Assembly: GCF_016903815.1 (NCBI RefSeq)
Contig: NZ_CP069970.1
Source of the DNA: Escherichia coli
GTDB lineage: Bacteria; Pseudomonadota; Gammaproteobacteria; Enterobacterales; Enterobacteriaceae
Reading direction: 5' to 3' (one strand)
Length of the DNA stretch: 39,407 bases
The notes under the pieces were generated by a model. It did no database searches, had not been told where the DNA came from, and worked only from the letters and a program-made list of their open reading frames with translations. A program made the translations under genes and the position numbers. This document shows, piece after piece, positions 14,172 to 34,831 of the stretch (position 1 is the first letter of the stretch; every line of letters starts with the position of its first letter).

Positions 14172-14180
14172 GAGGTATTT

Positions 14181-14402: not shown

Positions 14403-14782
14403 TGAGGCATATATCACCGGAAGAACTTATTGCGCTTCATGATGCGAATATAAGCCGCTACGGCGGCCTGCCGGGAATGTCAGATCCGGGTAGGGCAGAG
14501 GCCATTATCGGGAGAGTTCAGGCCAGAGTTGCCTACGAAGAGATCACCGACCTTTTCGAAGTCTCCGCCACCTACCTGGTGGCTACAGCGAGAGGGCATA
14601 TATTCAATGATGCCAATAAGCGTACCGCGCTAAACAGTGCGCTGCTATTTCTACGCCGTAACGGGGTGCAGGTATTTGATTCACCAGAACTGGCAGACCT
14701 TACCGTAGGGGCTGCGACCGGAGAGATATCTGTATCTTCTGTCGCCGACACGTTACGTAGATTGTATGGTTCCGCGGAGTAG
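14402..14782 (+). CDS. doc: Doc toxin (Fic-fold kinase, death on curing)
   Basis: 126 aa, [25 protein letters not shown]..., recognised as P1 Doc. Confidence 0.95.
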
Positions 14783-14966
14783 ATTAATGGCACGTAAATA
14801 CAACAAATTGTCCCGTGAAGCGTTAAAGATGCTTCTTGATGGCGTGAGTCGCCGCGAGGTAAAGCAATACCTGGTTGGTAAGCAAATTGGTGCTAGGACC
14901 GCTATTGCTGTGTTATGCCGTCAGGAAATGGTTGTGCTTAAACAGAGAATGCCGGGCAGCAGATAA
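14766..14966 (+). CDS. pdcA: post-doc protein A
   Basis: Small ORF directly after doc, as in P1; the real start may be the internal ATG at ~14787 (MARKYNK..., preceded by GGAG). Confidence 0.55.
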
Positions 14967-14993
14967 AGCCCAATCAGTGATGAAAGGTGTGAT

Positions 14994-16663: not shown

Positions 16664-17857
16664 GTGACCTGGGACGATCACAAGAAGAATTTTGCTCGCC
16701 TGGCGCGAGATGGTGGTTACACCATCGCACAGTATGCCGCCGAGTTTAATCTTAACCCTAATACTGCACGTCGTTATCTCCGTGCCTTCAAAGAAGACAC
16801 CAGGACAGCGGACAGCCGCAAGCCAAATAAACCAGTCAGGAAGCCACTAAAAAGCATGATCATTGATCACTCTAATGATCAACATGCAGGTGATCACATT
16901 GCGGATGAAATAGCGGAAAAACAAAGGGTTAATGCCGTTATCAGTGCCGCAGTCGAGAATGCGAAGCGCCAAAATAAGCGTATAAATGATCGTTCTGATG
17001 ATCATGACGTGATCACCCGCGCCCACCGGACCTTACGTGATCGCCTGGAACGCGACACCCTGGATGATGATGGTGAACGCTTTGAATTCGAAGCTGGCGA
17101 TTACCTGATAGATAACGTTGAAGCGCGGAAGGCCGCTCGCGCTATGTTGCGTCGGTCCGGGGCCGATGTTCTGGAAACCACTCTTCTGGAAAAGTCTCTT
17201 TCTCATCTCCTTATGCTGGAGAACGCCAGGGATACGTGTATTCGTCTGGTGCAGGAAATGCGCGATCAGCAAAAAGACGATGATGAAGGGACTCCGCCTG
17301 AATATCGTATCGCGAGCATGCTAAACAGCTGTTCCGCGCAGATAAGCAGCCTGATCAACACCATTTACAGCATCCGGAATAACTATCGAAAAGAAAGCCG
17401 GGAGGCGGAAAAGCACGCTTTATCTATGGGGCAAGCTGGCATTGTTAAGCTGGCATACGAACGAAAGCGTGAAAATAACTGGTCAGTGCTGGAAGCAGCT
17501 GAATTCATCGAGGCGCATGGCGGAAAAGTGCCGCCCCTGATGCTGGAGCAAATCAAAGCCGATCTGCGTGCTCCTAAGACCAATACCGATGATGAGGAAA
17601 GGCAAACAGCCGTCGGTGGCCCTTCTCTTGAAGATCTGGACAAAGTTGCGCGAGAACGGGCCGCCAACCGCCGCGCCGATGCCGCATTGTGGATTGAGCA
17701 GCGTAGGGAAGAAATCGCCGATATCGTTGATACAGGCGGTTATGGAGATGTTGATACTGAAGGTGTATCAAACGACCCATGGCTGGAACAAGACCTGGAC
17801 GAAGACGAGGAGGAAGACGAAGAAGTTACCCGCAAGCTATACGGGGATGATGATTAA
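16664..17857 (+). CDS. pacA: terminase/pacase small subunit PacA
   Basis: 397 aa, GTG start after AAAGGAAG; contains the pac hexamer clusters in its 5' part; TAATG overlap with pacB. Confidence 0.9.
16857..17016. other. pac packaging site: four TGATCA(N) elements (16857-16897), then three (16987-17016)
   Basis: Seen directly: TGATCAT, TGATCAC, TGATCAA, TGATCAC, then ~90 bp, then TGATCG, TGATCA, TGATCAC. Each has a GATC Dam site. This is the established P1 pac architecture inside pacA. Confidence 0.75.
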
Positions 17858-19341
17858 TGGCCAGAAGTTGCGTAACGGATCCACGTTGGCGCGAGCTGGT
17901 GGCGCTATATCGTTATGACTGGATTGCTGCCGCTGATGTTTTGTTCGGCAAAACACCTACCTGGCAGCAGGATCTGATTATTGAGTCTGTGCAGGAACAG
18001 GGTAGCAAGACATCTGTTTCGTCTGGTCACGGTACCGGGAAATCAGACATGACTTCTATCATGATCATGTTGTTCATAATCATGTATCCCGGTGCCCGCG
18101 CCATTATCGTTGCGAACAAAATTCAGCAGGTAATGACCGGTATATTCAAGTACATCAAGATAAACTGGGCTACTGCCACCAGCCGTTTTCCATGGCTTGC
18201 TGATTATTTTGTTCTGACAGAAACCGCTTTCTATGAGGTTACTGGTAAAGGTGTATGGACTGTAGTACCGAAGGGCTTTCGTCTGGGAAGTGAAGAAGCT
18301 CTCGCCGGTGAACACGCAGATCATCTTCTGTATATTATCGATGAAGCCTCCGGTGTCAGTGATAGAGCTTTCGGTATCATCACCGGTGCTCTTACCGGAC
18401 AGGATAACCGCATCTTATTGCTGTCACAGCCTACACGCCCAAGCGGCTATTTCTACGATACACACCATAAACTGGCCAAGCGTCCTGGTAACCCTGATGG
18501 CGTTTATACGGCGATCACGCTTAACAGTGAGGAATCACCGTTGGTAACGCCAGCATTTATCAAAATGAAGCTGGCGGAGTACGGCGGGCGTGATAACCCT
18601 ATGTACATGATTAAGGTACGCGGCCTATTCCCTAAATCACAGGATGGCTTCCTTCTTGGACGTGATGAGGTTGAACGTGCAACGCGGCGGAAAGTCAAGA
18701 TTGCCAAAGGATGGGGCTGGCTTGCATGTGTGGACGTTGCTGGTGGTACGGGACGGGATAAGTCCGTTATCAATATCATGATGGTGTCCGGCCAGCGAAA
18801 TAAACGCCGTGTAATCAACTATCGAATGCTGGAATACACAGACGTTACAGAAACGCAGCTTGCCGCCAAAATTTTCGCAGAATGTAATCCTGAGCGATTC
18901 CCAAATATCACCATAGCGATAGACGGCGATGGCCTGGGTAAAGCAACGGCGGATCTGATGTACGAGTATTATGGTATTACCGTACAGCGTATACGCTGGG
19001 GTAAAAAGATGCATAGCCGTGAAGATAAGAGCCTGTACTTTGATAAACGTGCTTATGCCAACGTTCAAGCCGCAGAGGCCGTAAAATCTGGTCGTATGAG
19101 ACTGGATAAGGGTAATGAAACTATTGAGGAAGCGTCGAAAATCCCTGTAGGGATTAACTCCGCAGGTCAATGGAAGGTGATGAGTAAGGAGGATATGAAG
19201 AAAAAACTCAACCTGCACTCACCAGACCATTGGGATACATATTGTTTCGCTATGCTGGCGGATTATGTTCCCCAGGATGAAGTGCTTAGCGTCGAAGACG
19301 AAGCGCAGGTTGATGAAGCTCTGGCATGGCTTAATGAATGA
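17857..19341 (+). CDS. pacB: terminase/pacase large subunit PacB
   Basis: 494-aa ORF translationally coupled to pacA; terminase-like ATPase region. Confidence 0.9.
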
Positions 19342-19361: not shown

Positions 19362-19544
19362 TGTTTTTTAACTACCGATGTTACATTGAGCCTGACCTCT
19401 TGCGCCTTGAGGCATTTTCGGTTTATGCTTATCAGGCACCTCATTAAAACGGGTGCCGGGATTGGCCTCCCGCTTAAGTCTAAGGCGATACAGACGCCGC
19501 TCGCGTCTTTTTTTTGTATCGGCGTACACGCACACCTCTACAAT

Positions 19545-19624
19545 GGTGGGCTGTATGGGGCTACCTTCGGGTAGGCTGGTTACCTTGGACGCCAGTAAGG
19601 CCAACTCCGTACAGTCCACCGCCA
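19545..19624 (+). ncRNA. c4: C4-like antisense RNA (tRNA-like acceptor stem with 3' GCCA)
   Basis: 11-bp closing stem GGTGGGCTGTA (19545-19555) pairs with TACAGTCCACC (19610-19620) with one G-U, followed by GCCA. Internal UUCG-tetraloop hairpin CTACC-TTCG-GGTAG. Candidate -10 TACAAT at 19539-19544. Size ~77-80 nt. Internal boxes are complementary to repeated target boxes on both sides. Confidence 0.55.
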
Positions 19625-19628
19625 GCAA

Positions 19629-19672
19629 GATTGGTCTCTTCTGCGGTGGTTACATACCAACGTCTAAGGAGG
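19629..19672 (+). promoter_or_regulatory. icd leader with antisense target boxes (GATTGGTCTC and CGTCTAAGG overlapping the AAGGAGG Shine-Dalgarno)
   Basis: Box CGTCTAAGG (19661-19669) is complementary to RNA segment CCTTGGACG (19583-19591); box TTGGTCT is complementary to RNA AGGCCAA (19598-19604). A second copy of both boxes lies upstream at 19460-19485. Confidence 0.45.
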
Positions 19673-19680
19673 CTGCCAAT

Positions 19681-19902
19681 ATGGCTACTATCCCTACCCC
19701 AACTCATCCTGAATTTATCTGGCGCTTTTACTCCTGCCAAAAACGTCACTATCACTTCGTTATTGCACCGACAGAAGATGAGGCCCGCTCTCAGCTTCCT
19801 GACGCCCCATGTATTTTCTCTGCCCGTTTTTCCACTGATTCACGCAATTCTCTCAGTTACTGGTGCCTCCCTGTTAACGCTTCTGCTCAGGAGGGACTAT
19901 GA
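19681..19902 (+). CDS. icd: Icd-like cell-division inhibitor (73 aa)
   Basis: Strong SD TAAGGAGG 8 nt before the ATG; 73 aa MATIPTPTHPEFIWRFYSCQKRHYHFVIAPTEDEARSQLPDAPCIFSARF... with an Icd-like motif; stop overlaps the next start (ATGA). Confidence 0.6.
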   Translation: MATIPTPTHPEFIWRFYSCQKRHYHFVIAPTEDEARSQLPDAPCIFSARFSTDSRNSLSYWCLPVNASAQEGL

Positions 19903-21017
19903 GAACGTCATTAGTCACCCGTGAAGAGATGATCGAGGCAATTGAACAGCACACTGCCTGTATCAGTACCAGGGATATACCAGGCGTTATTGCCAACTAC
20001 TTCATGATCACCAAACAACTTTACCGGAGAAAGGACAAGAACGCGGTTCACCGTATCCTGTTGTCTGATATCCGCGAATACCTGCTCGAACAGGGTCATC
20101 TGAATTACGCAACCGCCGCAGCCGAAGCACGCAAGGAGGCACACAGAATGAAAGCAACTAACGTTAAATCAGAAAAAATTCATGCACCTTCAGTTCAAGA
20201 ATCGGAGCTGGTGGTTGTTCAGAATCAGTCTGATGAAATTCCCGTTCTGGAATGGCAGGGAGTGCGTGTAGTGACAACCGAGACTCTTGCTAGAGGGTAT
20301 GGGACAGAAACAATCCGTATTCGCCAAAATCATCATGAGAACAAAGTACGCTTTGTTGAAGGGAAGCACTTTTTCAAAGTTGAAGGAGAATCATTGCGCG
20401 AGTTGAAGCACAGAGTAGCTTTAAACTACTCTGTAAAAATTGCTCGCAATGTTCGCTCACTCACCCTCTGGACAGAACGCGGCGCAGCCCGCCACGCTAA
20501 AATGCTCGAAACCGATCAGGCATGGGCATTCTTTGAAAAACTGGAAGACAGCTACTTCCGACAAAAAGAACAGCAACCGATCGCAATCCCCCAGACGCTT
20601 CCTGAAGCCCTACGCCTGGCTGCCGAACTGGCTGAACAAAAGCAACTTCTGGAACAGAAAGCCCACCAGCTAAATCAGCAGCTGGTGGCCGCCGCTCCTA
20701 AAGTCGATTTTGCCGACCGGGTATCAGTAGCTAAAGGGATCCTGATTGGGAATTTTGCAAAGGTTGTTGGACTTAAACAAAACGCGCTGTTTGTCTGGTT
20801 ACGGGAGAACGGCATCCTGATAGCGTCCGGTGGACGTAAAAATGTGCCGTTCCAGCAGTACATCAACGCGGGGTATTTCACGGTGAAAGAAGTGGTGCTG
20901 GATGATGAAGATGGCTACCAGATACGGTTGACGCCTCAATTAACGGGTAAAGGCCAGCAGTGGTTGACGCGTAAACTGCTCGATGCTGGCTTGTTAAAAC
21001 CGGTGGCGGCTGAATAA
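19899..21017 (+). CDS. ant: antirepressor Ant (N-terminal ORF6N/KilA-N-like domain + C-terminal KilAC/ANT domain)
   Basis: 372 aa (~42 kDa) with an in-frame internal Met near aa 83 that would give a ~32 kDa product, like P1 Ant1/Ant2. LEWQGVRVVTTETLARGYG... is ORF6N-type; the C-terminal AAPKVDFADRVSVAKGILIGNFAKVVG... is ANT/KilAC-type. Confidence 0.7.
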   Translation: MRTSLVTREEMIEAIEQHTACISTRDIPGVIANYFMITKQLYRRKDKNAVHRILLSDIREYLLEQGHLNYATAAAEARKEAHRMKATNVKSEKIHAPSVQESELVVVQNQSDEIPVLEWQGVRVVTTETLARGYGTETIRIRQNHHENKVRFVEGKHFFKVEGESLRELKHRVALNYSVKIARNVRSLTLWTERGAARHAKMLETDQAWAFFEKLEDSYFRQKEQQPIAIPQTLPEALRLAAELAEQKQLLEQKAHQLNQQLVAAAPKVDFADRVSVAKGILIGNFAKVVGLKQNALFVWLRENGILIASGGRKNVPFQQYINAGYFTVKEVVLDDEDGYQIRLTPQLTGKGQQWLTRKLLDAGLLKPVAAE

Positions 21018-21049: not shown

Positions 21050-21901
21050 TTATTGCGCGCTTTCGGGGTTGTCGTTTACTGGCTGCCCCTTCTTGGTTTT
21101 ACGGCTGCGCGTAACTGATGCGGCTGACTTAACCTTTTTCTCTTCGCGAGTGATGGCAATTTGTTTTTTTACATTTTCAATATCTGCCAGGCGATATATT
21201 TTTGCTTGCGGCCAGCGGTCGCAGATGATCGGTTCTATGGAGTCATAAAGGCTAAATTTTGCTTTTTCGAATTCACCGTTGATGATAATTCCATCACGGA
21301 GAGTTTCATCGCAGATAAACACGCCACACAGTGGCACATGGTAACTAACTGATTTACCATCATTGTAGTTAGGGCTACTGGAAATGTAGTGGACGCGCAG
21401 CATTGTTTCGCTAAAGCCGTGTACGCGCATACGGAATTTTTCATCCTCCGGGTACTGCTTCATTAGCTCTTTTGTTGCTTCCAGGTTCTCTATGTATTTC
21501 GCACTGTGCTCATTGATCCCCGCGCTTTTTTGGATGCGAATGTCCTTATCAATCAGATGAATAATGCGGCCAGCGGTCATGTTGACGCTGTTCACAGCTT
21601 CTGTCTGATAAGTTGTAACCTTACGCACACCGCGAAGGATGTTAGGCACTGGATATAAAATAGTCTTTGGGATATTGAGGTCTGGGTACTGTTCCAGTTC
21701 CCGCGCCATTAAAGTCCATTTATCAATTTCAGCCTGAATGCTGTCAGTTTCTTTGAACGGTAGAACGACAACCGGGCGTACAGGACGACCGTCGCTGGCT
21801 GTATCAACGTGTTGGGCGCGTGCAACAGCTTTTTTTAGAAAGAGATCCCTGAAGCTGACGAACTCCTGGTACAGTTGTTCGCCGTAGACATAATTTATCA
21901 T
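21050..21901 (-). CDS. c1: C1 repressor of lysis (primary immunity repressor)
   Basis: 283 aa, MINYVYGEQLYQEFVSFRDLFLKKAVARAQ..., recognised as P1 C1. Confidence 0.95.
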   Translation of the reverse strand: MINYVYGEQLYQEFVSFRDLFLKKAVARAQHVDTASDGRPVRPVVVLPFKETDSIQAEIDKWTLMARELEQYPDLNIPKTILYPVPNILRGVRKVTTYQTEAVNSVNMTAGRIIHLIDKDIRIQKSAGINEHSAKYIENLEATKELMKQYPEDEKFRMRVHGFSETMLRVHYISSSPNYNDGKSVSYHVPLCGVFICDETLRDGIIINGEFEKAKFSLYDSIEPIICDRWPQAKIYRLADIENVKKQIAITREEKKVKSAASVTRSRKTKKGQPVNDNPESAQ

Positions 21902-23046: not shown

Positions 23047-24078
23047 ATGTCCAATTTACTGACCGTACACCAAAATTTGCCTGCATTACCGGTCGATGCA
23101 ACGAGTGATGAGGTTCGCAAGAACCTGATGGACATGTTCAGGGATCGCCAGGCGTTTTCTGAGCATACCTGGAAAATGCTTCTGTCCGTTTGCCGGTCGT
23201 GGGCGGCATGGTGCAAGTTGAATAACCGGAAATGGTTTCCCGCAGAACCTGAAGATGTTCGCGATTATCTTCTATATCTTCAGGCGCGCGGTCTGGCAGT
23301 AAAAACTATCCAGCAACATTTGGGCCAGCTAAACATGCTTCATCGTCGGTCCGGGCTGCCACGACCAAGTGACAGTAATGCTGTTTCACTGGTCATGCGA
23401 CGGATCCGAAAAGAAAACGTTGATGCCGGTGAACGTGCAAAACAGGCACTGGCGTTCGAACGCACTGATTTCGACCAGGTTCGTTCACTCATGGAAAATA
23501 GCGATCGCTGCCAGGATATACGTAATCTGGCATTTCTGGGGATTGCTTATAACACCCTATTACGTATAGCCGAAATTGCCAGGATCAGGGTTAAAGATAT
23601 CTCACGTACTGACGGTGGGAGAATGTTAATCCATATTGGCAGAACGAAAACGCTGGTTAGCACCGCAGGTGTAGAGAAGGCACTTAGCCTGGGGGTAACT
23701 AAACTGGTCGAGCGATGGATTTCTGTCTCTGGTGTGGCTGATGATCCGAATAACTACTTGTTTTGCCGTGTCAGAAAAAATGGTGTTGCCGCGCCATCTG
23801 CCACCAGCCAGCTATCAACTCGCGCCCTGGAAGGGATTTTTGAAGCAACTCATCGATTGATTTACGGCGCTAAGGATGACTCTGGTCAGAGATACCTGGC
23901 CTGGTCTGGACACAGTGCCCGTGTCGGAGCCGCGCGAGATATGGCCCGCGCCGGAGTTTCAATACCGGAGATCATGCAAGCTGGTGGCTGGACCAACGTA
24001 AATATTGTCATGAACTATATCCGTAACCTGGATAGTGAAACGGGGGCAATGGTGCGCCTGCTGGAAGATGGCGATTAG
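23047..24078 (+). CDS. cre: Cre site-specific tyrosine recombinase
   Basis: 343 aa, MSNLLTVHQNLPALPVDATSDEVRKNLMDMFRDRQAFSEHTWKMLLSVCRSWAAWCKLNN..., recognised as P1 Cre. Confidence 0.98.
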   Translation: MSNLLTVHQNLPALPVDATSDEVRKNLMDMFRDRQAFSEHTWKMLLSVCRSWAAWCKLNNRKWFPAEPEDVRDYLLYLQARGLAVKTIQQHLGQLNMLHRRSGLPRPSDSNAVSLVMRRIRKENVDAGERAKQALAFERTDFDQVRSLMENSDRCQDIRNLAFLGIAYNTLLRIAEIARIRVKDISRTDGGRMLIHIGRTKTLVSTAGVEKALSLGVTKLVERWISVSGVADDPNNYLFCRVRKNGVAAPSATSQLSTRALEGIFEATHRLIYGAKDDSGQRYLAWSGHSARVGAARDMARAGVSIPEIMQAGGWTNVNIVMNYIRNLDSETGAMVRLLEDGD

Positions 24079-24128: not shown

Positions 24129-24440
24129 ATGCGGAAGGATTTCAAAATAGACGGAAAATATGTGGTGCTGTCTGTAAGCTCTCAAATTCAGTCACCATCT
24201 GTCATTGTCACCGTAAAGTTGAGCGATAGGATGCCTGATATCGACTCGATATCTGTTGCGTTCCCCGTTAAAAGTATGCGGAGTGCTGAACATTTTGTGA
24301 TGAATGCAACGGAGGAGGAAGCGCGGCGCGGGCTTACTAGAGTGATGGCGGAATTTGGCGAACTCCTGGGTAAGGTAAACAATGCCCTTTCAATCAGTTC
24401 AGCAAGATCCAAAGCGTTAACAGCTTCCATGATGAAATAA
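24129..24440 (+). CDS. cra: Cra (cre-associated function)
   Basis: 103-aa ORF immediately downstream of cre, as in P1. Confidence 0.6.
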   Translation: MRKDFKIDGKYVVLSVSSQIQSPSVIVTVKLSDRMPDIDSISVAFPVKSMRSAEHFVMNATEEEARRGLTRVMAEFGELLGKVNNALSISSARSKALTASMMK

Positions 24441-24686: not shown

Positions 24687-25247
24687 ATGAAAACAATCGA
24701 ACAAAAACTTGAACAGCGCCGCGAGTGGCAGAAGGCTGCCAGAGAACGAGCGATCGCTCGGCAACGGGAAAAGTTGGCTGACCCCGCTTGGCGAGAATCG
24801 CAATATCAGAAAATGCGGGATTCTATCGACCGCCGTATCGCTAAACAGAAAGAGCGCCCACCAGCCAGCAAAACGCGGAAAAGCGCGGTAAAAATAAAAT
24901 CTCGTGGCTTGAAGGGGAGAACACCAACGGCGGAGGAACGGCGCATCGCCAATGCTCTTGGCGCTCTCCCCTGCATTGCCTGCTACATGCATGGAGTAAT
25001 ATCTGAAGAGGTATCTCTGCACCATATCTCCGGTCGTACCGCGCCGGGTTGTCACAAAAAGCAATTGCCCCTTTGTAGATGGCACCACCAGCATGCAGCA
25101 CCGGCTGAAGTAAGAGAAAAATACCCCTGGCTGGTCCCTGTTCATGCCGATGGTGTGGTTGGAGGCAAGAAAGAATTCACCTTGCTGAACAAGTCAGAGA
25201 TGGAGTTGCTGGCTGACGCCTATGAGATGGCAAACATCATGCACTAA
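24687..25247 (+). CDS. ref: Ref, recombination enhancement function (HNH-type endonuclease)
   Basis: 186 aa from MKTIEQKLEQRREWQKAARER...; Cys/His cluster CIACYMHG...HH...CRWHH. The track ORF start at 24582 lies inside the operator and is rejected. Confidence 0.9.
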   Translation: MKTIEQKLEQRREWQKAARERAIARQREKLADPAWRESQYQKMRDSIDRRIAKQKERPPASKTRKSAVKIKSRGLKGRTPTAEERRIANALGALPCIACYMHGVISEEVSLHHISGRTAPGCHKKQLPLCRWHHQHAAPAEVREKYPWLVPVHADGVVGGKKEFTLLNKSEMELLADAYEMANIMH

Positions 25248-25436: not shown

Positions 25437-26078
25437 ATGGATAAGAAAATATGCGTTGTGTCGATGAGCGTCGGCAAACCGGCGTCAATGACTGCTGCAT
25501 GGATCAATAACGAGCTGATAATGGCTGAGCGGACCAGCTACCCTGAACGCCGCCGCGATATGGAACTCCAGCTGCTGCGCGAATTGCGAGAAAAAGAGGA
25601 AAAGGGTTTTATCGTGCTGGTGGAAGAGGAAAACAGCTTTATTACTGGTCGAGTTGGCCAGCGTGTAAGGTTGCGCGATCCCTTCATGAACGGCAGGCCG
25701 GTACTAATTGAGGCAATGCAGATTTATAAGGAGCTGGAACGCCAGAAAGCAATCAAGTTACCGCGCAAGGAATCCGGCAAATACATTCTCCACCAAAGCA
25801 TCTTCGATTCCGAACACGATAAAAAAGGCGATGAATTTTTCAACATCAACTGGAGCGAAATAACGACAGAGCATGTTCTGACGTTACTATGTTGCTTTGC
25901 GACGGAATACAACAACGTTGCCAGCGCCGACTACATCAGGGCAATGGCTGGAGAAGTTGAGGCCCGCCAAGAACCATCGTTACTAAGTCCACTGATTAAC
26001 ATAATTCTGGGCACCCAGATACTGGAACAAAAAAAAGTGCCGAAAGGGGTATTAACAGGCAAGCATAATTATTTTTAA
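25437..26078 (+). CDS. hypothetical protein in the P1 mat position
   Basis: ATG at 25437 preceded by GGGGG; 213 aa. The track ORF extends to an upstream GTG at 25290. No recognisable motif. Confidence 0.5.
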   Translation: MDKKICVVSMSVGKPASMTAAWINNELIMAERTSYPERRRDMELQLLRELREKEEKGFIVLVEEENSFITGRVGQRVRLRDPFMNGRPVLIEAMQIYKELERQKAIKLPRKESGKYILHQSIFDSEHDKKGDEFFNINWSEITTEHVLTLLCCFATEYNNVASADYIRAMAGEVEARQEPSLLSPLINIILGTQILEQKKVPKGVLTGKHNYF

Positions 26079-26171
26079 CAATTACATACAGTAATTTTGT
26101 GGTTACATTCTCCATTGATTTTCTAACCGCTTTATCATTAGATGTAACAGCATGTAAATCATTTAAAATGG

Positions 26172-27308
26172 ATGAAAGCAATGGGGAATGAAGTTTATCA
26201 AAGTCAAAAATGCAAGTTGAAATATTCAAAATCTCAAATTGATAGGGCTGCTCAATTGATAAGGCACGGGTGTAGTGACGAAGAAAGGCAGCAATCTATT
26301 GAAATGATACAAAATTTCCGTGAGCTGCATCTTTATCCATTAATGCTCATGAAAAATCATTTAGCAAGAGCAGCTGCTAAGGTTGACAAGGACAAAAAGA
26401 TTCTCGTTGCAAGAAGACTTAAGCGACTTTCTACCATAATAGATAAACTAGAGCGTCCTAGTCTTGATGGAGGCAGAACTAGCAATGCAATTAAATTAAC
26501 ACGGATGCAGGACGTTGGCGGATGTAGGGCCATTGTCAGAAACTTAGACCAGTTGATACAGCTAAAGGAACGTCTTTTAAAAAGCAAATCTGTTCATAGG
26601 ATTGTTAAAGAGTATGATTATCTTACTCCCAAAGACAGCGGCTATAGTGGAATCCACCTTGCATACAGTTGCTTCGATCAGAAAGAGGATCAATATCCGT
26701 GGCGAAAAACAAAGATTGAGATACAGTTAAGAACTCAATTGCAGCATGCTTGGGCTACCAGCCTTGAAATAATTGATACCCTTGAAGGTATCAAGCTGAA
26801 AACTTCAAGTGAAGGGCATCCAGAATGGAGACGATTTTTCTATCTAGCCGGATGTCTTGTAGCGCACGACGAAAAAGCCTGCACTCTTGATGAGCTAGTT
26901 GTATCTCAGTATGAAGGCGAGCTTAAAGAGCTGGAACGGACTTTATCTGTACGGAGGAAACTAAGCACATACACCATCGCCTTAAATTTAACTTCTGACG
27001 CGAATTTGATTAAGAAGTTGCCAAAAAATCATAAGGGGCATTACTTAGTAACAATGAGAAATGCAGAAAACAAGCCCAATACAAAAAACAAAAAAATGTT
27101 CCTAGTGTCTGTTCGCGCATTTAAAACAAAAGAAGCAGATGAAGCCCTTGAGGCCTTAAATAAAGACGATTCTAATCCTAATGTATTGATATCTGTTCTC
27201 GTTGCTACAGATAACATTAAGTCACTAAAAAAAGCCTACCCCAACTATTTTGGCTCAACAAACCAGTTTACAAAATTCTTAGATAAGCATCTTCGTAACG
27301 AAGGATAG
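26172..27308 (+). CDS. capRel: fused toxSAS (RelA/SpoT-like nucleotidyltransferase) with C-terminal extension; CapRel-like
   Basis: 378 aa. RelA/SpoT synthetase-fold motifs: DVGGCRAIV, DYLTPKDSGYSGIHL, IEIQLRTQLQHAWA. ~110-aa C-terminal extension without Cys. No separate small antitoxin ORF adjacent. AT-rich relative to flanks. Occupies the slot between the mat-position gene and lxc where P1 has res-mod. Confidence 0.7.
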   Translation: MKAMGNEVYQSQKCKLKYSKSQIDRAAQLIRHGCSDEERQQSIEMIQNFRELHLYPLMLMKNHLARAAAKVDKDKKILVARRLKRLSTIIDKLERPSLDGGRTSNAIKLTRMQDVGGCRAIVRNLDQLIQLKERLLKSKSVHRIVKEYDYLTPKDSGYSGIHLAYSCFDQKEDQYPWRKTKIEIQLRTQLQHAWATSLEIIDTLEGIKLKTSSEGHPEWRRFFYLAGCLVAHDEKACTLDELVVSQYEGELKELERTLSVRRKLSTYTIALNLTSDANLIKKLPKNHKGHYLVTMRNAENKPNTKNKKMFLVSVRAFKTKEADEALEALNKDDSNPNVLISVLVATDNIKSLKKAYPNYFGSTNQFTKFLDKHLRNEG

Positions 27309-27314
27309 TTGCTT

Positions 27315-27343
27315 AATTTTGCCCGGTAATTCCGGGCAAAATT
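27315..27343. terminator. bidirectional terminator AATTTTGCCCGG-TAATT-CCGGGCAAAATT between the toxSAS gene and lxc
   Basis: Perfect 11-12 bp inverted repeat flanked by A/T runs, between convergent genes. Confidence 0.7.
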
Positions 27344-27344: not shown

Positions 27345-27593
27345 TCAATCTGCATTCAGGAGCAATGCGTTATCTATGATGATCTGCTCCCATTCTTCGA
27401 ATGCCCGATCGCGGACGCCCTGGGGAACACTGTTAGTTTTGAAATCGACCACCGTCCGCCATTTCCCGTCCGGGCGGTACATGCGCAGAGCTTTACTTCC
27501 CCCTTCCCTGCGCACCTCAACGTTATGCTTATCAGCAAACTCTTGTAATGCTCGTAGCGTCCCATGCTTTACTGTGTAGTATCGCTTTTTCAA
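27345..27593 (-). CDS. lxc: Lxc/Bof, C1 co-repressor
   Basis: 82 aa, MKKRYYTVKHGTLRALQEFADKHNVEVRREGG...; size and position match P1 lxc. Confidence 0.8.
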   Translation of the reverse strand: MKKRYYTVKHGTLRALQEFADKHNVEVRREGGSKALRMYRPDGKWRTVVDFKTNSVPQGVRDRAFEEWEQIIIDNALLLNAD

Positions 27594-28030
27594 GTTTTCT
27601 CTCCAGCCTGTGCCAAGGCTTCAACTTCCAAATCGTAAGACTCAAACTCATAGTCCTGGTCGTCAACTTCTTCAGGCACTGGCAGTAAATGCCAGGCTGA
27701 GTATATCTGACCATTATCAAAACGCTCCTGGCTGTAGAGCGTCGCGGCTATGAGTGTTAGCGCCGGGCGGTCATAACGGTAAATTTTGCGAACGTCACGG
27801 TCAACGAGACGACCGAAATTACCATAACCGCGCTCCAGTAATAATTTTTTAATTTCCGGCCAGTATGGGCCATAGCTGCGGTACAGGCGGGGATTTTTCA
27901 GTAATCGCCCGCGTAGCCCTGACAGGAAGAAATCAACGTATTCGTCTTCTGTCTTTCCTAACAATGCCGTACGCAGTACCGCCTCAAGATATGTTTTATT
28001 CGGTTTTATTGTATCAGATAGTGTGGCCAT
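27590..28030 (-). CDS. ulx: Ulx (upstream of lxc)
   Basis: 146-aa ORF between lxc and darB, as in P1. Confidence 0.7.
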   Translation of the reverse strand: MATLSDTIKPNKTYLEAVLRTALLGKTEDEYVDFFLSGLRGRLLKNPRLYRSYGPYWPEIKKLLLERGYGNFGRLVDRDVRKIYRYDRPALTLIAATLYSQERFDNGQIYSAWHLLPVPEEVDDQDYEFESYDLEVEALAQAGEKT

Positions 28031-28063: not shown

Positions 28064-31000
28064 TTATGCGTATTGTTGGATGACGGCCAGAACGTCCGCC
28101 ACGTTGTGTTTTGTCTCGATAATCCACCAGTTACCCGGGAAATCGCTGTTCTTCGCCTTCGCTGGCAGCCAGCGAGCGCCGAATTTCGCCTTGATTGCGT
28201 CTTTCGCACGGAAAAGAACGCCTTTCATGCCTGAGGCTTCCTGAAGCCCAAATACCTCGCCAGCGGCGAATTTTGGTGCGTACATCATCTTCAGGTCGGC
28301 GGTGGATACGCGATAATTCAGACCAAGAGACTGAGCTATGCTGGTGGCATCACCCTGTATTGATGATAACTCTTCTTGTTTCTCGTTTCTGGCGGCAATT
28401 TCTTCCTCCGTGATGTTGCCAAGGGCCAGGTTTATCCGATCAGCGTCGGCCTGTTTCTCTTCATCGGTGCGTCCGGCAAGAACCGTGTTAACTCTCTGCA
28501 ATATCTCCACATGATTCTTGCGCATGCTGAGCAATTCCGGCGTAACCTCGTTAAGATCCACCAGCCCAAGGATGGCAAGGTCGGAAAACATTGATACCAG
28601 GTTGTAGGTCATGCGATAGCTGAGTTGACCATAGGCTGATGGCAACTTCACCGCATCCATTTGATAGGCATCCATAAATTTAGAGCCGTCGTTTACGACA
28701 TCCGCAATTGCCGGTGTGATTTTTCCTGTGGTGGCGGCCTCCCTGATTGCTGTTACCCACGATTGAGTCAGCGCGGCGACTGCATGATTCAGATTGGCTT
28801 TCCGTTCTGCTGCAATGCGCGCACTTGCTGCGTCCATTGCCTGCTTGATCTCGTCTTTATTGCTGTAAATGCCAATGGTGCCAAACTGTGCTGTGGTGAT
28901 CTCATAATCTGACGCCCGGAACTCATGGGTACCGAAAATGGCATTGGTGACCTCAAGTTCAGAATCCCCGTTACGAGTAGCCCCCTGGCTTGTTTTCTCC
29001 GGCATTTTTGCGATCGCATCCGCTATTTTCTCCTGAATTGCTTCAGGGGATAGCGTATCTCCGTATGACGCGATTACATCGCCATAATTGGAGCCAAACA
29101 ATTCAACCAGGAATGTTTCTGCCGAACGGATCTGGCGGTTATTCCCTTCCGACATCATACCAAGCACCCATTTTGCAATTGACGACTTCAGCGCGCCGTC
29201 ACGGCGATCCGGGTAAACCGCATGCTTCAGTGGGTCCGTATAGGTGCCAACAAAATCAATGCTATAGCCTGACTCTGTAGTCTGAACGCCGTATGAGTCA
29301 GTGATTTTGATCATGCCGCGCTGCTGGAAACGGTAGAAATCGTCACAGGAAATGATGTCGTTAATCCCGGCGATGGAGACGCCACCACTGATTTTCTGCA
29401 TAACAGCATCTTCATCGGGAGTTACATCCACCTGTTTATCCAGCGTCTTCACATCCCAGTTACCCGATTTGGTGCCTTTGAAGGTAAAGATGATCTCCAC
29501 GTCTGCGCGCTGGCTGTCGAAGTCCAGCGACTTAATGCGAACGATATCACCGGCACAATCATAGTATTGGCCTACACGCCATGAGCGATCGCCGATAACA
29601 AGGAACTCATTCGCATGGTTAACCAGATCAGGATCAACATCCAGAATGCCTTTATTTATTGCATCCTCCACCAGCGGGCGCAGGCGTTTGATATCCGTCG
29701 CGGCCTTCTGAGTACGGTTCAATAATTTCTCATAGCGGGAGATGGCCTGAGAGATATTAGCCTTGCGCTGAATGGCGCTTTTCAACGACGCGCGATACTG
29801 TGCTAACAACATACGGTCTGTGTGATGGACGCTACCCCAGCGGGCTTTCCAGTCTGCGTTATCAGCTGCTTTGGCCATTACCGCCTGTTTGAATTTGGCG
29901 ACGTCGGCGGTGGTCTTTTCAAGTTCCGCTTTGCTTCGCTCCAATTCAGCGGTAAGTACCTCCACATCCTCACCAGCTGCGTGCTGCGCCTTGATGTAGT
30001 TCTGAAGGTCGATAGTAGCCTGTTCTTTCTGGCGAGCGCGTTTCGCAGCTTTCGCCTTATCCATTTGAACCTGCATCATTACCAGACGTTCGCCATCATC
30101 CTTAGCGGTATACATCTGCATTTCGATCATATCGTTGGCGTCGGCGTTCTCCATTTCTGACTTATCTGAACGGAGGATATCGGAGATCCAGCCTGCTTTA
30201 CGCTTCAGCGTCTTCAGTCGGTATTCATCGAAAGAACCCTTGCCGCAGTAGTAATGAACGCGAACGCTTGCACGGTTGGAGCCAACTCGAGCACCGCGAC
30301 CGTTACGCTGTGCGATACTGGCTGGTGTCCATGGCAACGTCAGATGATGGATGTCAGTCGTTCCTCGATGCAGGTTGATACCCACCTCTGCCTTTTTGTT
30401 GCAGATGATGATCGGAGTCCGGCCCTCCTGGAAGTCGGCTGCAATCTTTTCCAGACCGCCCAACGACATTTCATTTTGCTGCGCGATATAGGCGTCATAC
30501 AGAGCCATTTGCTCGTTGTATTTCGCTATCTGTGCATCTGTTGGTTCATCCGGTAACTCTTTCGGCGGTTTAACCGCTTTCAGTTTCTTACCGGTTTTAC
30601 CTGCCTCGGCAACCGTCTGAGCATTCAGGATCCCCACCTTTGAAGGTTCAAGGTTAAGAGCATTGCAGATAATGCGCTTGAGCTTCTGGTGCTGCGTTTT
30701 TTCGTCCGTGAAGATGATTTGCTTACCTTCCGGGAAAAACGCCTTCAGCGTGGCGATCAGCTTCGCGTATTTGGGTGTAACGGGGTGAGTTACGGTCTGT
30801 TCGTCAATGCCAAACTTGGCCAGGCGATTATTCACTTCCTGCTCAAATGCTTCCGGTACCTGCAACTGAATAAACTCGCCCTTATCTATCAGGGAGTATT
30901 GCGATTGCTGCGTGATCGAATCATCACTGTCGTCGTCTTCGCTGGTGGCTTGTTTAGGCAAACTGTCCGCCAGCTGCTGCACCGCATCGGCGTACTCCGG

Positions 31001-34000
31001 CAGGAAACGATAGGTGATCCTGCGATAGTACAGGTCCATGTCAGTACATACGCGGTCCATATCCCTGATTATTGAGAAGATCGGACGGGCTTTCTCGTGC
31101 TCAATCACGCCGTCTTCATTGACCGAGGTCGTTACGCCATTGTTGGCTTTGGCTGCCGCTTCCGCCTGCTGACGCAATTCTTCATACGCCGCCAGTTGTT
31201 CTTCCGTAAGTGGTGCATCCTGCTGGTGTTCGTCCAGTTCCGGGATCTCCACGGTATCCTTAACGTCTTCCGCCGTTTTAAGCGTTGTCCAGCGATGGAA
31301 TATGCCGCGCAGCGCATCAAGGTTTTCAAAGCCCACCAGCGCCATTTTTTCTTCAACTTCACCGCTGATTTTCTGTACCGTTTCCAGCCTGGTCTTGCCG
31401 AAGAATTTAACGAAGTCATCAGGACCGTAGATCCCCATCTTCTGCCAGTATTCCTTCGGCAGCACATGAGAAAGCATGTTGTATGCATCGATCGGGGTGT
31501 TAACGACTGGCGTTGCAGTCAGGAGAACCGGTCCGCGCCCACCATTCTTTTTCATCAGGTACGCGTTTTTAATTGCCATATCCCGCGCCGATTGCGCCAC
31601 CGCGCTGGTGGGCAGATAGGCCAGTTGTGACGCTTCGCGACCATTTTTATAGCTATTGCGGTAGTTGTGACCTTCGTCAGCGATCACACTATCGAAGCCC
31701 ATATCCTCAAAGTACGGATACTTCTCTGCTTTTTCGGTGCCGGTATCTGAATACTCCGACAATACCCGGCGACGCGCGGCCTCTTTGCGGTGGGAGTCGG
31801 AGTCCATTGCGCTGGCTACGCGCCCGGCGGCAACGAAGTCATAAAGCATATCCTGTGCATGCTCATCTACGGTGTCATCACGTAGCGGAATGCGGGCGTA
31901 TTGTTCTTTGGTAAACACGACTGCACGGTAATTTGAGTGCGGGATCGCGTTCATCCGCGCCGTGATAGTGGCTTCATCTGCCAGTTTTAGGGCATCGCGC
32001 ATAACTGGAGTGCCATCAGTACCAAGAACAGGTTTACCGTTCTCATCGAGCACCGGCACCTGGCGAATCTGATCGCCATCCATCAGCACATCAAGACCGA
32101 CGAACAGGTAGTTACTGAATGCCTCTTCACTCAGGAATTCTTTTGCTTCGTAATACCAGTTTTCCAGCACTGATTTAGGCACTACATACGCAGTACGGGT
32201 GGAGCGACCGTTCTCATAGTTGAACGCCTCAAGCGCCAGCGCGGTCGTAGTTTTACCCAGCCCGGTGCCGAAGCCCAGGATGCCGCGCCCATCTTCGGAC
32301 AGTCGGCGCACTTCGCTATTCTGGTAATCAAATGGCTGGCGCTTACCGCTTAATCCCTTCAACCCAAGCGGATCGCCAGAGTGTTCATACGGGATATTGC
32401 TATTGAACACATCGTTGTATTTGGCAACCAGTTCATCGTAGCGATCGTGCGTCTTGATCCACTTATTGAACTGGTCCTCAAGCAGTGCCATCTGCTCGCG
32501 GTAGCCGTTCGCCGTCGCGCTATCTTTGCCACCGATACGCGCACCATTGAGATACTTTTCCAGCTGTGCCGGGAACCCGGTCGCGTTTTCACCTGATTTA
32601 CGGTCCCACTCGTAGCGGATCTCGCCTGTTTCTTTATCCTTGCGCTGGACGACACCGTATCGGTGCCCGACGAACAGGCCATCACCACCGTGATAGGTGT
32701 CAGAAACCATTTCGTCGCCTTCCAGCTGCACTGACTGCACATAGCGCAGATCCGGATAGCCGTTTTCCTGCAAAAACTCCAGAATGACGGAGCGGTCGAA
32801 CCAACGGCTATTGAGCTTAAAGCGGATATTCTCTGCTGGCGTCTTGATGCGCTTCTCTTCGATCGCTGCCAGCTGATTAAGGACGTTGTTCTTTACTGGA
32901 CCGTCGGGGAGTGTGGCAAGGAATTCCTGTTTTGGAGCCACTATCTCGTTAATGTCGCCGCTGGTGGCGCGGGCGAACGGAACAATCCCGCCATACGGAG
33001 AAACCGCAATACCAGGAGTGCTGGCCAATAAATTAAGCAACTCTTCATCACTGGCTGGCAGTTCGCCGGTAAACGCAAGGCGGAAATCATCGAGCTGGAT
33101 TGGATCGCGGGTAAGATCGCTATAGAGATAACGCAGGGTGTCCTGATAGCTGGTGGAGTCATAACTGGCGCTGGAATCATGCGTAACCAGCTTTCCTGTT
33201 AGCTCGTCAGAAATAGTGCCATCCAGCTTAATTGCACCACGGAAAGCAAACCAGGCGCGCGCACCGCTTCCCGATAATTTAGCTATCGGACCGCGACCGG
33301 GGTTACCAAAACGGTCAATCTCTGCCTGCAAACGGGACACCAGAGAAAGGCGCTGCTGTTCGATTTGTTCAGCACTATGCCCGGCGGCCTTCATATCCTG
33401 ATATTCAATTAACATCCGGCCAATCATCGCCCCACGATACAAGCGTTCACGGTATTTTTCAGGCTGGCTGTTAATCCAGTCCACCAGCTGCACCATATCG
33501 TCGCTGATTGATGTGGTGTACTTATCGCGGACATTTGCCATCTGGGTAAATGTCATACCGAGACGGCCTTCTGTTGTAGTCAGGTTACGCTGAAGAGCCT
33601 CCCAGCTATCCGCGCCATAACTGGCAGCATCAATCTTAAGCTCCTTACCAGCATCAGCTTCAATCCAGCGACCACCAGCATATTTTTGCCATACGCCATT
33701 AATCAGGCGCATTTCCCCTTCATCAACAACATCTGCGGTCGGTGACGGTTCAGCCATATCGAGCAAAGACCAGTCGATACGACTTTCGAAACGATGAATC
33801 AGCTTCGCTTTAAGAGCCTGGTTATCAATCTGACCGTCGGCACGAACCTCAATACGCCCCTGGAAGCCCTTTTCCTGGGTGCCATGAACAAACCGGCGGC
33901 CATCCTTTTCAAACCACTTGCCAGAAATAAACGTTGGCCAAAGCACATTTGCCGATTCAAGAGTGCTTTCATCCACCAGGGGGATTTTCTCAGCCATCTC

Positions 34001-34831
34001 TGCCGGATGTTTGCGCATCAGCACCACATCAACGACTGTACTGGTCCCGTTTGCGTCAAAAGTACCGGTAGGCAAGCGGTGAGCGCCAAGAAATTCAGCT
34101 TTACGGGATAAGCGCAGGCGTAACCGCTTCATGTTTGAACCTGAAACAATGGACGGCGGCACAATCACGCACATGAATCCGCCTGGCTTTATCTTGTCCA
34201 GCATGCGGAGCATGAAGTAAGAACCCATGTCCGTTTCTTCTGCGTAAGGCTTATCGATGTTGCGTGTGTTATCACGACCGCCGAACGGAACGTTACCCAC
34301 AACATGGTCGAATGAATCGTTAGGCGTGCTTATAGCCAGCTGTTCGAACGGGGAAATCTGTACGCTGTCTTCCGGGTGTAACAACTGGTTTATACGACCG
34401 GAAACACTGCTGATCTCAGTCGCGGTCATCACCGTACCAACCGGTTTTGTCTCATTAAAAACGCCGGTTCCCGCCGATGGTTCCAGAGTGTTACCTACGT
34501 CCGCGCCGTAGAGCTTCATGATCTCCCAGACACCTTCAGCGATCGGCTTTGGTGTGTAATATTCGGAGACGGACCCGCCAATGCCGCCTTCACCGGTGTA
34601 CCCAGCCAGGATCTGGCGCTGTTCATCTGTCAGTGTCGCGCCGTCCACCAGCGAATTAAGCAAATCTATCGCCTTCTGATTCGCCTCCCGGCGCAGTCGG
34701 TCATAGCTTTTGCCTTCCACCTTTTCCACGCCGTATTTAATCGGCGCTCGGTGAGATGTTATTGCCCTAATGTATTTCAATATTTCGCTGACACTTGAAC
34801 AGCGAAACACCCCCATAAATAGCTTGTTCAT
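28064..34831 (-). CDS. darB: DarB, defence against restriction (methyltransferase-helicase, virion-packaged)
   Basis: 2255 aa, the same length as P1 DarB; N-terminal methyltransferase-like region and central DExH helicase motifs. Confidence 0.9.
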   Translation of the reverse strand: MNKLFMGVFRCSSVSEILKYIRAITSHRAPIKYGVEKVEGKSYDRLRREANQKAIDLLNSLVDGATLTDEQRQILAGYTGEGGIGGSVSEYYTPKPIAEGVWEIMKLYGADVGNTLEPSAGTGVFNETKPVGTVMTATEISSVSGRINQLLHPEDSVQISPFEQLAISTPNDSFDHVVGNVPFGGRDNTRNIDKPYAEETDMGSYFMLRMLDKIKPGGFMCVIVPPSIVSGSNMKRLRLRLSRKAEFLGAHRLPTGTFDANGTSTVVDVVLMRKHPAEMAEKIPLVDESTLESANVLWPTFISGKWFEKDGRRFVHGTQEKGFQGRIEVRADGQIDNQALKAKLIHRFESRIDWSLLDMAEPSPTADVVDEGEMRLINGVWQKYAGGRWIEADAGKELKIDAASYGADSWEALQRNLTTTEGRLGMTFTQMANVRDKYTTSISDDMVQLVDWINSQPEKYRERLYRGAMIGRMLIEYQDMKAAGHSAEQIEQQRLSLVSRLQAEIDRFGNPGRGPIAKLSGSGARAWFAFRGAIKLDGTISDELTGKLVTHDSSASYDSTSYQDTLRYLYSDLTRDPIQLDDFRLAFTGELPASDEELLNLLASTPGIAVSPYGGIVPFARATSGDINEIVAPKQEFLATLPDGPVKNNVLNQLAAIEEKRIKTPAENIRFKLNSRWFDRSVILEFLQENGYPDLRYVQSVQLEGDEMVSDTYHGGDGLFVGHRYGVVQRKDKETGEIRYEWDRKSGENATGFPAQLEKYLNGARIGGKDSATANGYREQMALLEDQFNKWIKTHDRYDELVAKYNDVFNSNIPYEHSGDPLGLKGLSGKRQPFDYQNSEVRRLSEDGRGILGFGTGLGKTTTALALEAFNYENGRSTRTAYVVPKSVLENWYYEAKEFLSEEAFSNYLFVGLDVLMDGDQIRQVPVLDENGKPVLGTDGTPVMRDALKLADEATITARMNAIPHSNYRAVVFTKEQYARIPLRDDTVDEHAQDMLYDFVAAGRVASAMDSDSHRKEAARRRVLSEYSDTGTEKAEKYPYFEDMGFDSVIADEGHNYRNSYKNGREASQLAYLPTSAVAQSARDMAIKNAYLMKKNGGRGPVLLTATPVVNTPIDAYNMLSHVLPKEYWQKMGIYGPDDFVKFFGKTRLETVQKISGEVEEKMALVGFENLDALRGIFHRWTTLKTAEDVKDTVEIPELDEHQQDAPLTEEQLAAYEELRQQAEAAAKANNGVTTSVNEDGVIEHEKARPIFSIIRDMDRVCTDMDLYYRRITYRFLPEYADAVQQLADSLPKQATSEDDDSDDSITQQSQYSLIDKGEFIQLQVPEAFEQEVNNRLAKFGIDEQTVTHPVTPKYAKLIATLKAFFPEGKQIIFTDEKTQHQKLKRIICNALNLEPSKVGILNAQTVAEAGKTGKKLKAVKPPKELPDEPTDAQIAKYNEQMALYDAYIAQQNEMSLGGLEKIAADFQEGRTPIIICNKKAEVGINLHRGTTDIHHLTLPWTPASIAQRNGRGARVGSNRASVRVHYYCGKGSFDEYRLKTLKRKAGWISDILRSDKSEMENADANDMIEMQMYTAKDDGERLVMMQVQMDKAKAAKRARQKEQATIDLQNYIKAQHAAGEDVEVLTAELERSKAELEKTTADVAKFKQAVMAKAADNADWKARWGSVHHTDRMLLAQYRASLKSAIQRKANISQAISRYEKLLNRTQKAATDIKRLRPLVEDAINKGILDVDPDLVNHANEFLVIGDRSWRVGQYYDCAGDIVRIKSLDFDSQRADVEIIFTFKGTKSGNWDVKTLDKQVDVTPDEDAVMQKISGGVSIAGINDIISCDDFYRFQQRGMIKITDSYGVQTTESGYSIDFVGTYTDPLKHAVYPDRRDGALKSSIAKWVLGMMSEGNNRQIRSAETFLVELFGSNYGDVIASYGDTLSPEAIQEKIADAIAKMPEKTSQGATRNGDSELEVTNAIFGTHEFRASDYEITTAQFGTIGIYSNKDEIKQAMDAASARIAAERKANLNHAVAALTQSWVTAIREAATTGKITPAIADVVNDGSKFMDAYQMDAVKLPSAYGQLSYRMTYNLVSMFSDLAILGLVDLNEVTPELLSMRKNHVEILQRVNTVLAGRTDEEKQADADRINLALGNITEEEIAARNEKQEELSSIQGDATSIAQSLGLNYRVSTADLKMMYAPKFAAGEVFGLQEASGMKGVLFRAKDAIKAKFGARWLPAKAKNSDFPGNWWIIETKHNVADVLAVIQQYA

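Follow-up and report, generated by a model that had tools for sequence, protein, structure and literature searches.

The gene studied here lies in a P1-like phage-plasmid and encodes a protein related to RelA/SpoT synthetases, which raises the question whether it serves alarmone synthesis, plasmid maintenance or defence against other phages, or whether it is a passenger. It is located in a stretch of 39,407 nucleotides from Escherichia coli (contig NZ_CP069970.1), referred to as the window in the following. The original prediction, made from the raw sequence, had proposed a fused toxin-antitoxin gene of the CapRel type occupying the position of the res-mod genes of P1. We arrive at the same reading and assign a probability of about 0.9 to the window open reading frame being a functional CapRel-type defence gene. 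Sequence, domain order, conserved residues, the missing partner gene, the slot and conservation in the population can be read directly. The gene would then provide a single-protein abortive-infection defence on a P1-like phage-plasmid and shield the lysogen from other phages.

Open reading frame, domains and functional residues

As predicted, the program-made list of open reading frames contains an uninterrupted frame of 378 codons on the plus strand (26172..27308). The second in-frame ATG at 26181 is the likely start of the capRel-type gene. We have taken it as such because the first methionine of CapRelSJ46 aligns there and the RefSeq entry WP_000526244.1 (375 aa) starts at the same position. 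In the three codons that separate these ATGs, most positions differ between the window and SJ46 alleles, and the sequence TGGATG directly before 26181 is conserved between them. RefSeq labels the window protein 'RelA/SpoT domain-containing protein'. All three synthetase-fold motifs that had drawn attention to the frame (DVGGCRAIV, DYLTPKDSGYSGIHL and IEIQLRTQLQHAWA) are present in the translation, the Pfam family RelA_SpoT (PF04607) matches residues 82-196 with an E value of 7e-12, and the PADLOC model PDC-S33 recognizes the protein with an E value of 7e-86. The C-terminal extension is free of cysteine, as had been noted, but is longer than the roughly 110 residues originally given: the last cysteine is residue 234 of 375, which leaves 141 residues. 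The gene is also AT-rich compared with its flanks, in line with the first impression, since exact counts gave a G+C content of 38.8% for capRel as opposed to 47.2% for mat, 48.8% for lxc-ulx, 51.9% for darB and 48% for the whole window. G+C at third codon positions (GC3) amounts to 35%, and the G+C profile runs at 35-42% over the gene versus about 50% on either side.

Table 1 Features of the capRel locus and its surroundings (positions in the window; residue numbers of the three single codons follow CapRelSJ46).
Feature	Position	Strand	Remarks
cre	23047..24078	+	P1-type backbone
c8	24129..24440	+	P1-type backbone
ref	24687..25247	+	P1-type backbone
mat (maturation control)	25437..26078	+	P1 core gene; left boundary of the slot
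Cassette-specific upstream region	26080..26180	+	68% identical to the capRelSJ46 upstream region
Alternative upstream start	26172	+	378 aa
capRel-type fused toxSAS gene	26181..27308	+	375 aa; 74% identical to CapRelSJ46
Antisense ORF inside the capRel gene	26357..26587	-	ORF list, at least 40 aa
toxSYNTH core (Pfam RelA_SpoT)	26415..26759	+	Pfam match, residue alignment
R79 codon	26415-26417	+	In toxSYNTH core
R116 codon	26526-26528	+	In toxSYNTH core
G-loop Y155 codon	26643-26645	+	In toxSYNTH core
Anchor-1 helix and pseudo-ZFD sensor/antitoxin domain (aa 270-340)	26988..27200	+	Alignment; predicted beta-beta-alpha-beta; no Cys
Antisense ORF inside the capRel gene	27041..27217	-	ORF list, at least 40 aa
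YPNY (YXXY) autoinhibitory motif in anchor-2	27237..27248	+	Invariant in 69 homologues
Inverted repeat AATTTTGCCCGG-TAATT-CCGGGCAAAATT	27315..27343	.	Between capRel stop (27306-27308) and lxc stop (27345-27347)
lxc (modulator of C1)	27345..27593	-	P1 core gene; right boundary of the slot
ulx	27590..28030	-	P1 core gene
darB (2255 aa, anti-restriction)	28064..34831	-	P1 gene

When all PDB chains were searched, 7ZTB and 9ERV, both structures of CapRelSJ46, were matched over the full length (E = 5e-185), with the alignment to 7ZTB extending to residue 370 of 373. BLASTP against the SJ46 protein (from NC_031129), a pairwise comparison that had been proposed as a check, yielded 275 identities in 371 positions (74%) from end to end with a single one-residue gap. 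With this full-length match and with the experimentally defined functional residues retained, the assignment to the fused CapRel-type toxSAS proteins holds. Identical in both proteins are A77, R79, R116, Y155, L280, L307, V338, L339, A341, A351 and Y352-P-N-Y355, and an alignment of 69 homologues revealed the same positions as invariant or nearly so. In CapRelSJ46, R79 and R116 coordinate adenine, the G-loop residue Y155 is required for defence, substitutions in YXXY (Y352, Y355) or of A77, V338, L339, A341 and A351 lead to constitutive toxicity, and activation by the SECPhi27 capsid protein needs L280 and L307 (Zhang et al. Nature 2022, PMC9712102). Among the positions that contact Gp54 of phage Bas11 in CapRelSJ46 (Zhang et al. 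Nature 2024, PMC11578894), L270, D273, N275, L276 and K278 are kept in the window protein, and three are changed (K277I, S279K, R314K). The pseudo-ZFD is the least conserved domain throughout the alignment of the 69 homologues.

An AlphaFold2 model calculated from this 69-sequence alignment (mean pLDDT 82) shows the secondary structure expected of a synthetase core and, behind it, a beta-beta-alpha-beta unit at residues 286-343 (strands 286-294 and 307-315, helix 316-330, strand 335-343) and two terminal helices. A Foldseek comparison of the model with the PDB placed 9ERV and 7ZTB first (E = 1e-41, TM 0.70-0.77) with SAS enzymes far behind, and the match to FaRel2 was weak (E = 3e-3, 17% identity). 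The global rmsd between the model and the CapRelSJ46 crystal structures is 9-10 Å. AlphaFold yields the closed state for CapRelSJ46 while the crystal captured the open state (PMC9712102), and the large rmsd probably reflects another relative position of the two domains in a closed model and an open crystal.

We consider it very improbable that the gene encodes a housekeeping-type small alarmone synthetase similar to RelQ or RelP, which would supply host or plasmid with (p)ppGpp rather than act as a defence toxin. The Pfam RelA_SpoT domain, weak structural matches to RelP, RelQ, YjbM and YwaC (E values from 2e-8 to 1e-4) and the name 'GTP pyrophosphokinase' carried by some copies in RefSeq and GenBank would be in line with such a role, and the synthetase core fold with its G-loop is indeed common to the window protein and RelQ/RelP (PDB 5DEC, 6EWZ). 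However, RelP and RelQ, the runners-up in the PDB search with E values of 2e-8 or weaker, match the core only, and identity to the SAS enzymes is limited to 20-25% over about 120 core residues, against 74% over the full length to the tRNA-pyrophosphorylating CapRelSJ46. Moreover, the RelQ/RelP enzymes comprise about 210-230 residues, synthesize (p)ppGpp, do not modify tRNA and lack a C-terminal sensor domain, whereas the window protein possesses an additional C-terminal stretch of 170 residues with anchors, pseudo-ZFD and YPNY. The sequence and structural features that mark a CapRel protein are present, i.e., a toxSYNTH domain, catalytic and ATP-binding residues, a fused sensor without cysteine, and YXXY with its interface, and the gene is cargo of a mobile element.

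CapRelSJ46 pyrophosphorylates tRNA and acts as a phage defence (PMC9712102), and it is from this 74%-identical relative that we infer toxicity, autoinhibition, tRNA modification and activation by a trigger for the window protein. Judging from the conserved residues and the published mechanism, the resting protein would be closed with YPNY placed in the ATP site. Upon infection, a newly made phage protein may bind to the face formed by pseudo-ZFD and anchor and keep the enzyme open; for CapRelSJ46 such triggers are the major capsid protein or Gp54 of Bas11 (PMC9712102, PMC11578894). By homology, the open enzyme would transfer pyrophosphate from ATP to the 3' ends of tRNAs, so that translation would stop and no phage would be released.

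Gene neighbourhood and the interval between mat and lxc

The original prediction had stated that no small antitoxin gene is adjacent, and this is confirmed by the short intergenic DNA, an Rfam scan and the core-gene nature of the neighbours. The flanking non-coding DNA comprises 102 bp between the mat stop codon and the start at 26181 and 36 bp between the capRel and lxc stop codons. In the list of open reading frames of at least 40 aa, none falls into this intergenic DNA, and the only further frames are the two antisense ones inside the gene. An Rfam search of positions 25200-28100 for an RNA antitoxin gave no match at E<=1. In RCS47, where the slot is empty, mat and lxc adjoin. With gaps of only 102 and 36 bp, an Rfam scan without match and neighbours that are P1 core genes and occur also where the slot is empty, a separate antitoxin cannot be accommodated, and we have rejected both a protein and an RNA antitoxin encoded separately. 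Relatives residing in prophages integrated in other Enterobacterales lie next to unrelated genes, and no partner gene is conserved among them. The bipartite toxSAS systems PhRel/ATphRel of mycobacteriophage Phrann and FaRel2/ATfaRel2 (PDB 8PU3) also rely on a toxSYNTH toxin of the RelA/SpoT superfamily, are prophage-borne and confer superinfection immunity (PMC9712102). Their antitoxin is the product of a separate gene, whereas it is fused in the window protein, and we have therefore dismissed assignment to this bipartite type.

The fusion also bears on the idea that the gene is a plasmid-addiction module, i.e., that it stabilizes the P1-like plasmid by post-segregational killing instead of sensing phages. 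A TA-type protein on a low-copy plasmid prophage would fit this role, and P1 already has phd-doc for plasmid addiction. On the other hand, a single polypeptide contains both toxin and antitoxin, so that the two cannot decay at different rates. Furthermore, most of 701 P1-like plasmids have either nothing or unrelated genes in the slot, so capRel is dispensable for plasmid maintenance, and the homologue that has been tested is a phage defence protein (PMC9712102). We therefore regard an addiction function as highly unlikely.

The position of the gene had been given as lying between ref and lxc-ulx-darB. The downstream part of this statement is correct, with lxc, ulx and darB being 98.3% identical to P1 at the DNA level. 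The upstream part is not, because mat intervenes between ref and capRel, and the slot has to be addressed as mat|lxc. The cassette (26080-27344) occupies precisely the DNA from the mat stop codon to the lxc stop codon, the two genes being convergent. In a blastn analysis of positions 25200-28100, the match to P1, RCS47 and JL22 breaks off at 26072-26079 and sets in again at 27345-27347, and homology to Ro157c2YLVW likewise resumes at the lxc stop codon. The same interval harbours res and an IS5-interrupted mod in P1, one gene for a protein of 316 aa in JL22, two genes in Ro157c2YLVW and capRelSJ46 in SJ46, and in RCS47 it is empty and measures 47 bp. The proposed correspondence to the res-mod position of P1 is thus accurate, and so is the statement that CapRel was described from a P1-like Salmonella element, as SJ46 is a P1-like Punavirus with capRel in the very same position. 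The EcoP1I genes of P1 share the slot and are defence cargo as well, but they form an unrelated type III restriction-modification system that consists of two genes, spans about 6.3 kb including IS5 and is encoded on the opposite strand.

A total of 701 PLSDB plasmids match the flanks formed by mat and lxc-ulx, and 71 of these cover at least 80% of the mat-to-ulx query, which means that they carry either of the two capRel alleles. Among 60 sampled rows of the 701, the other contents of the slot were genes for SIR2-family, YaaC-family, PIN-domain, DUF2971 and GNAT proteins, or nothing. This variety of cargo across P1-like elements supports mat|lxc as a swappable defence slot, as anticipated in the original prediction. 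Literature on a hotspot between mat and lxc was found to be restricted to general statements.

Two capRel alleles and their distribution

The window and SJ46 genes agree in length, domain order, orientation and location in the mat|lxc slot of a P1-like phage-plasmid. They also have homologous upstream regions and a low G+C content (37-39%), and they are identical with regard to catalytic and autoinhibitory residues and L280/L307. They differ in the sequence of the 3' hairpin, at synonymous sites (pS 0.85) and in residues of the sensor domain. DNA identity between the two elements is 93.8% for mat, 97.2% for lxc and 99.1% for ulx, as opposed to 69% for capRel, 68% for the region upstream and 54% for the short region downstream. 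Since synonymous sites are saturated while the flanks are 94-99% identical, the whole cassette is an ancient unit that has evolved on its own within a young backbone common to both elements, and the window allele is no recent variant of that of SJ46. The value for pN (0.17) is much lower than that for pS, which indicates purifying selection between the alleles. By domain, pN amounts to 0.14 for the core and 0.225 for the pseudo-ZFD; owing to saturation (pS 0.71-0.98), dN/dS could not be computed for domains except for one linker segment, where it is 0.10.

Amino acid identity to CapRelSJ46 is 79% for residues 1-70, 79% for 71-200, 71% for 201-269, 63% for 270-339 (the pseudo-ZFD) and 71% for 340-373. 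Altogether, 98 of 373 aligned residues differ, and these cluster in residues 226-270 and the pseudo-ZFD. Within the latter, the changes affect beta6 (F287H, F288Y, R291T), the beta6-beta7 loop at residues 296-305, which has one extra residue, and the start of alpha10 (311-324). Mosaicism or domain swapping was considered as a source of this pattern and rejected, as no homologue has a near-identical sensor domain: in a collection of 5.8 billion protein sequences, no pseudo-ZFD exceeded 66% identity to that of the window protein. The variable pseudo-ZFD sets phage specificity in CapRelEbc from Enterobacter chengduensis, which responds to T7, and in CapRelKp from Klebsiella pneumoniae, which responds to SECPhi18 (PMC9712102). 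These two proteins, which we compared by description only, share the fused CapRel architecture with the window protein and have not been reported from the P1 slot. As the sensor of the window protein differs from that of CapRelSJ46 mostly in beta6, in the loop between beta6 and beta7 and at the start of alpha10, the range of phages recognized is likely to overlap only partly.

The distribution of the alleles in PLSDB is bimodal. A tblastn search returned 51 records with at least 95% identity, 22 with 60-80% (about 74% in those sampled, corresponding to the SJ46 allele) and 31 with less than 60% (about 30% in those sampled). We tentatively propose, at somewhat less than even odds, that two anciently diverged capRel cassettes without intermediates share the mat|lxc slot of nearly identical P1 backbones, respond to different and possibly non-capsid phage triggers, are subject to frequency-dependent selection and are swapped by recombination in the flanks. 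Different triggers would be expected because the sensor faces of the two alleles differ in the elements named above (beta6, beta6-beta7 loop, alpha10). In any case, the window gene is a second, common CapRel allele of E. coli P1-like phage-plasmids, 74% identical to the first overall and 63% in the sensor domain. A comparison of the pair would be a natural experiment on the effect of pseudo-ZFD variation on the recognition of triggers, and it would also bear on the way in which a P1-like phage escapes self-triggering of CapRel by its own capsid protein.

The cassette is at least 99% identical in 51 PLSDB plasmids, all from Escherichia. Among 5,426 complete E. coli genomes, 82 contain it at this level of identity, and 82 of the 86 places at which it occurs are plasmid-borne, typically on plasmids of 92-130 kb. 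The cluster formed by the window protein at 90% identity comprises 313 member sequences. The novelty implied by the original prediction does not stand up to these numbers: the gene is widespread and contained in RefSeq, and a 2025 survey of phage-plasmids from clinical Enterobacteriaceae has already reported CapRel, with CapRel or dGTPase systems being common in P1-like elements of E. coli (bioRxiv 10.1101/2025.09.12.675607). Both the gene and its location belong to known types, already caught by annotation pipelines and by the published survey. In the literature on CapRel and P1-like phage-plasmids, no experimental work on the window allele was found. From the raw sequence, the gene had been recognized correctly as CapRel defence and its site as an accessory slot of P1, and little new biology is added by the locus itself.

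Integrity of the gene, upstream region and 3' hairpin

Defective copies exist. In the record of phage vB_EcoM-673R5, two gaps of one nucleotide each split the capRel gene, so this copy may be inactive or the record may contain sequencing errors. One further copy is interrupted by IS1 (H110) and others are truncated (H72/H73, H116-H118). Four variant copies of the window allele carry no changes other than N332D, E374K, S39A, D170E and I266L, too small a number for a statement on selection.

The promoter and the Shine-Dalgarno sequence are presumed to reside in the cassette-specific upstream region, in which the blocks CCATTGATTT, ATGTAACA, AATCATTT and TGGATG are conserved with the corresponding region of SJ46. 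A promoter tool and a relaxed scan for sigma-70 promoters found at best 8 of 12 consensus matches in these 101 bp. As none of these candidates is convincing, the assumption that capRel is expressed in the lysogen is a prediction from SJ46, for which constructs with the native promoter have been used (PMC9712102).

The missing clear promoter and the split, IS1-interrupted and truncated copies could be taken to mean that capRel is a decaying or silent passenger without a current function in the element. Against this, the window copy is intact with all functional residues kept, and in 75 of the 82 matching genomes a place spans 80% or more of the cassette with an identity of at least 99%. In addition, pN is far below pS when the window gene is compared with its SJ46 counterpart, and the DNA upstream of it is homologous to the region from which capRelSJ46 is natively expressed. 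A mere passenger is thus a very unlikely description of the gene, and a functional CapRel-type defence gene remains our preferred reading.

Downstream of capRel, the original prediction had placed a perfect bidirectional terminator. The hairpin is real and indeed perfect, with arms of 12 bp, a loop of 5 nt and a free energy of -20.3 kcal/mol. Its function as a bidirectional intrinsic terminator is not supported, because the run of T lies in front of the stem and the run of A behind it (TTTT-stem-AAAA), so that no U-tract is situated behind the stem on either strand, and the hairpin was not called in a terminator scan. It may serve termination, protection of RNA 3' ends or another purpose. At the same place, the SJ46 cassette has a different hairpin of 11 bp, and the empty site of RCS47 reads GCCCGG...CCGGGCAAAA and has the same stem core as the window hairpin.

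The mat-lxc slot and its occupants

Each version of the mat-lxc junction carries its own strong hairpin at its end, directly adjoining the stop codon of lxc. The hairpin of the window and that of the empty RCS47 site share the stem core GCCCGG/CCGGGCAAAA, whereas the SJ46 junction stem is unrelated to the window stem. A U-tract following the stem is absent from all three junction hairpins (window, RCS47 and SJ46).

The cargo of the mat-lxc interval was surveyed in 60 sampled rows among 701 plasmids of the PLSDB database and in the fetched loci L004-L006. It proved highly diverse in other P1-like plasmids, comprising one or two genes each. Occupants were a SIR2-family protein, a YaaC-family protein together with a hypothetical protein, a PIN-domain protein, a DUF2971 protein, a GNAT acetyltransferase, an HTH protein and a 316-aa hypothetical protein (JL22 gp7). 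Further P1-like elements carry res-mod in this slot or have it empty. Several of the cargoes are without a recognised defence assignment and could be candidate defence genes.

Features of the window and of the compared junctions
Feature	Location	Strand	Match
ABC/SMC-like ATPase, 711 aa	2367..4505	-	PADLOC PDC-S06, E 1e-285
CD-NTase oligonucleotide cyclase, first CBASS gene	4970..5965	+	PADLOC PDLC00802, E 4e-152
4TM effector, second CBASS gene	5969..6901	+	PADLOC PDLC00717, E 1e-165
hsdR fragment 3	7949..8629	-	model positions 760-973
hsdR fragment 2	8589..10280	-	model positions 236-765
hsdR fragment 1	10225..11067	-	model positions 1-267
hsdS, intact	11189..12445	-	
hsdM, intact	12442..14004	-	
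Icd-like ORF, 149 aa	within 19453..21017	+	NF033153, E 9e-13
Junction hairpin, window	27315..27343		
TnpB, IS200/IS605-family	36661..37791	-	NF040570, E 8e-107
Junction hairpin, RCS47 empty site	L004 3470-3495		
Junction hairpin, SJ46	L001 5100-5127		

Interrupted, partial and possibly inactivated copies of the capRel cassette

The nearest phage record, vB_EcoM-673R5 (ON470615.2, locus L003), is 99.8% identical across 6 kb. Its capRel (L003 4071-5333) contains two 1-nt gaps and is annotated as two ORFs, a 'RelA/SpoT family protein' and a 'hypothetical protein'; the gaps represent either a genuine loss of function or sequencing errors at homopolymers. In one plasmid (NZ_CP050045.1) the cassette is interrupted by IS1A, and two E. 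coli chromosomes (NZ_CP104618.1 and NZ_CP125883.1) have its 3' 450 bp alone, with 36% coverage and 99.3% identity.

An apparent shared defence block and other possible accessory genes

PADLOC identified a two-gene type I CBASS (4970..6901, +), which is oriented divergently to the gene for an ATPase aligning over nearly its full length with the candidate defence family PDC-S06. A type I restriction-modification locus follows (7949..14004, -). Its hsdR is broken into three successive ORFs, implying two frameshifts and thus a pseudogene or sequencing errors. More than 100 E. coli plasmids, 90-165 kb in size, share the region containing these three loci (1..15300) at about 98.6% identity, and it looks like a multi-defence island common to many plasmids.

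Between the gene that we take from its ORF size to be pacB (17857..19341) and the presumed c1 (21050..21901, -), the Icd-like ORF overlaps a 372-aa ORF, for which PADLOC PDC-S05 was the sole, weak match. A gene as large would not be expected in this interval on the P1 gene map. The stretch 19453..21017 could represent a second accessory site or a module resembling immI. The tnpB gene, encoding a member of an RNA-guided endonuclease family, is positioned between the darB start and the next P1 genes.
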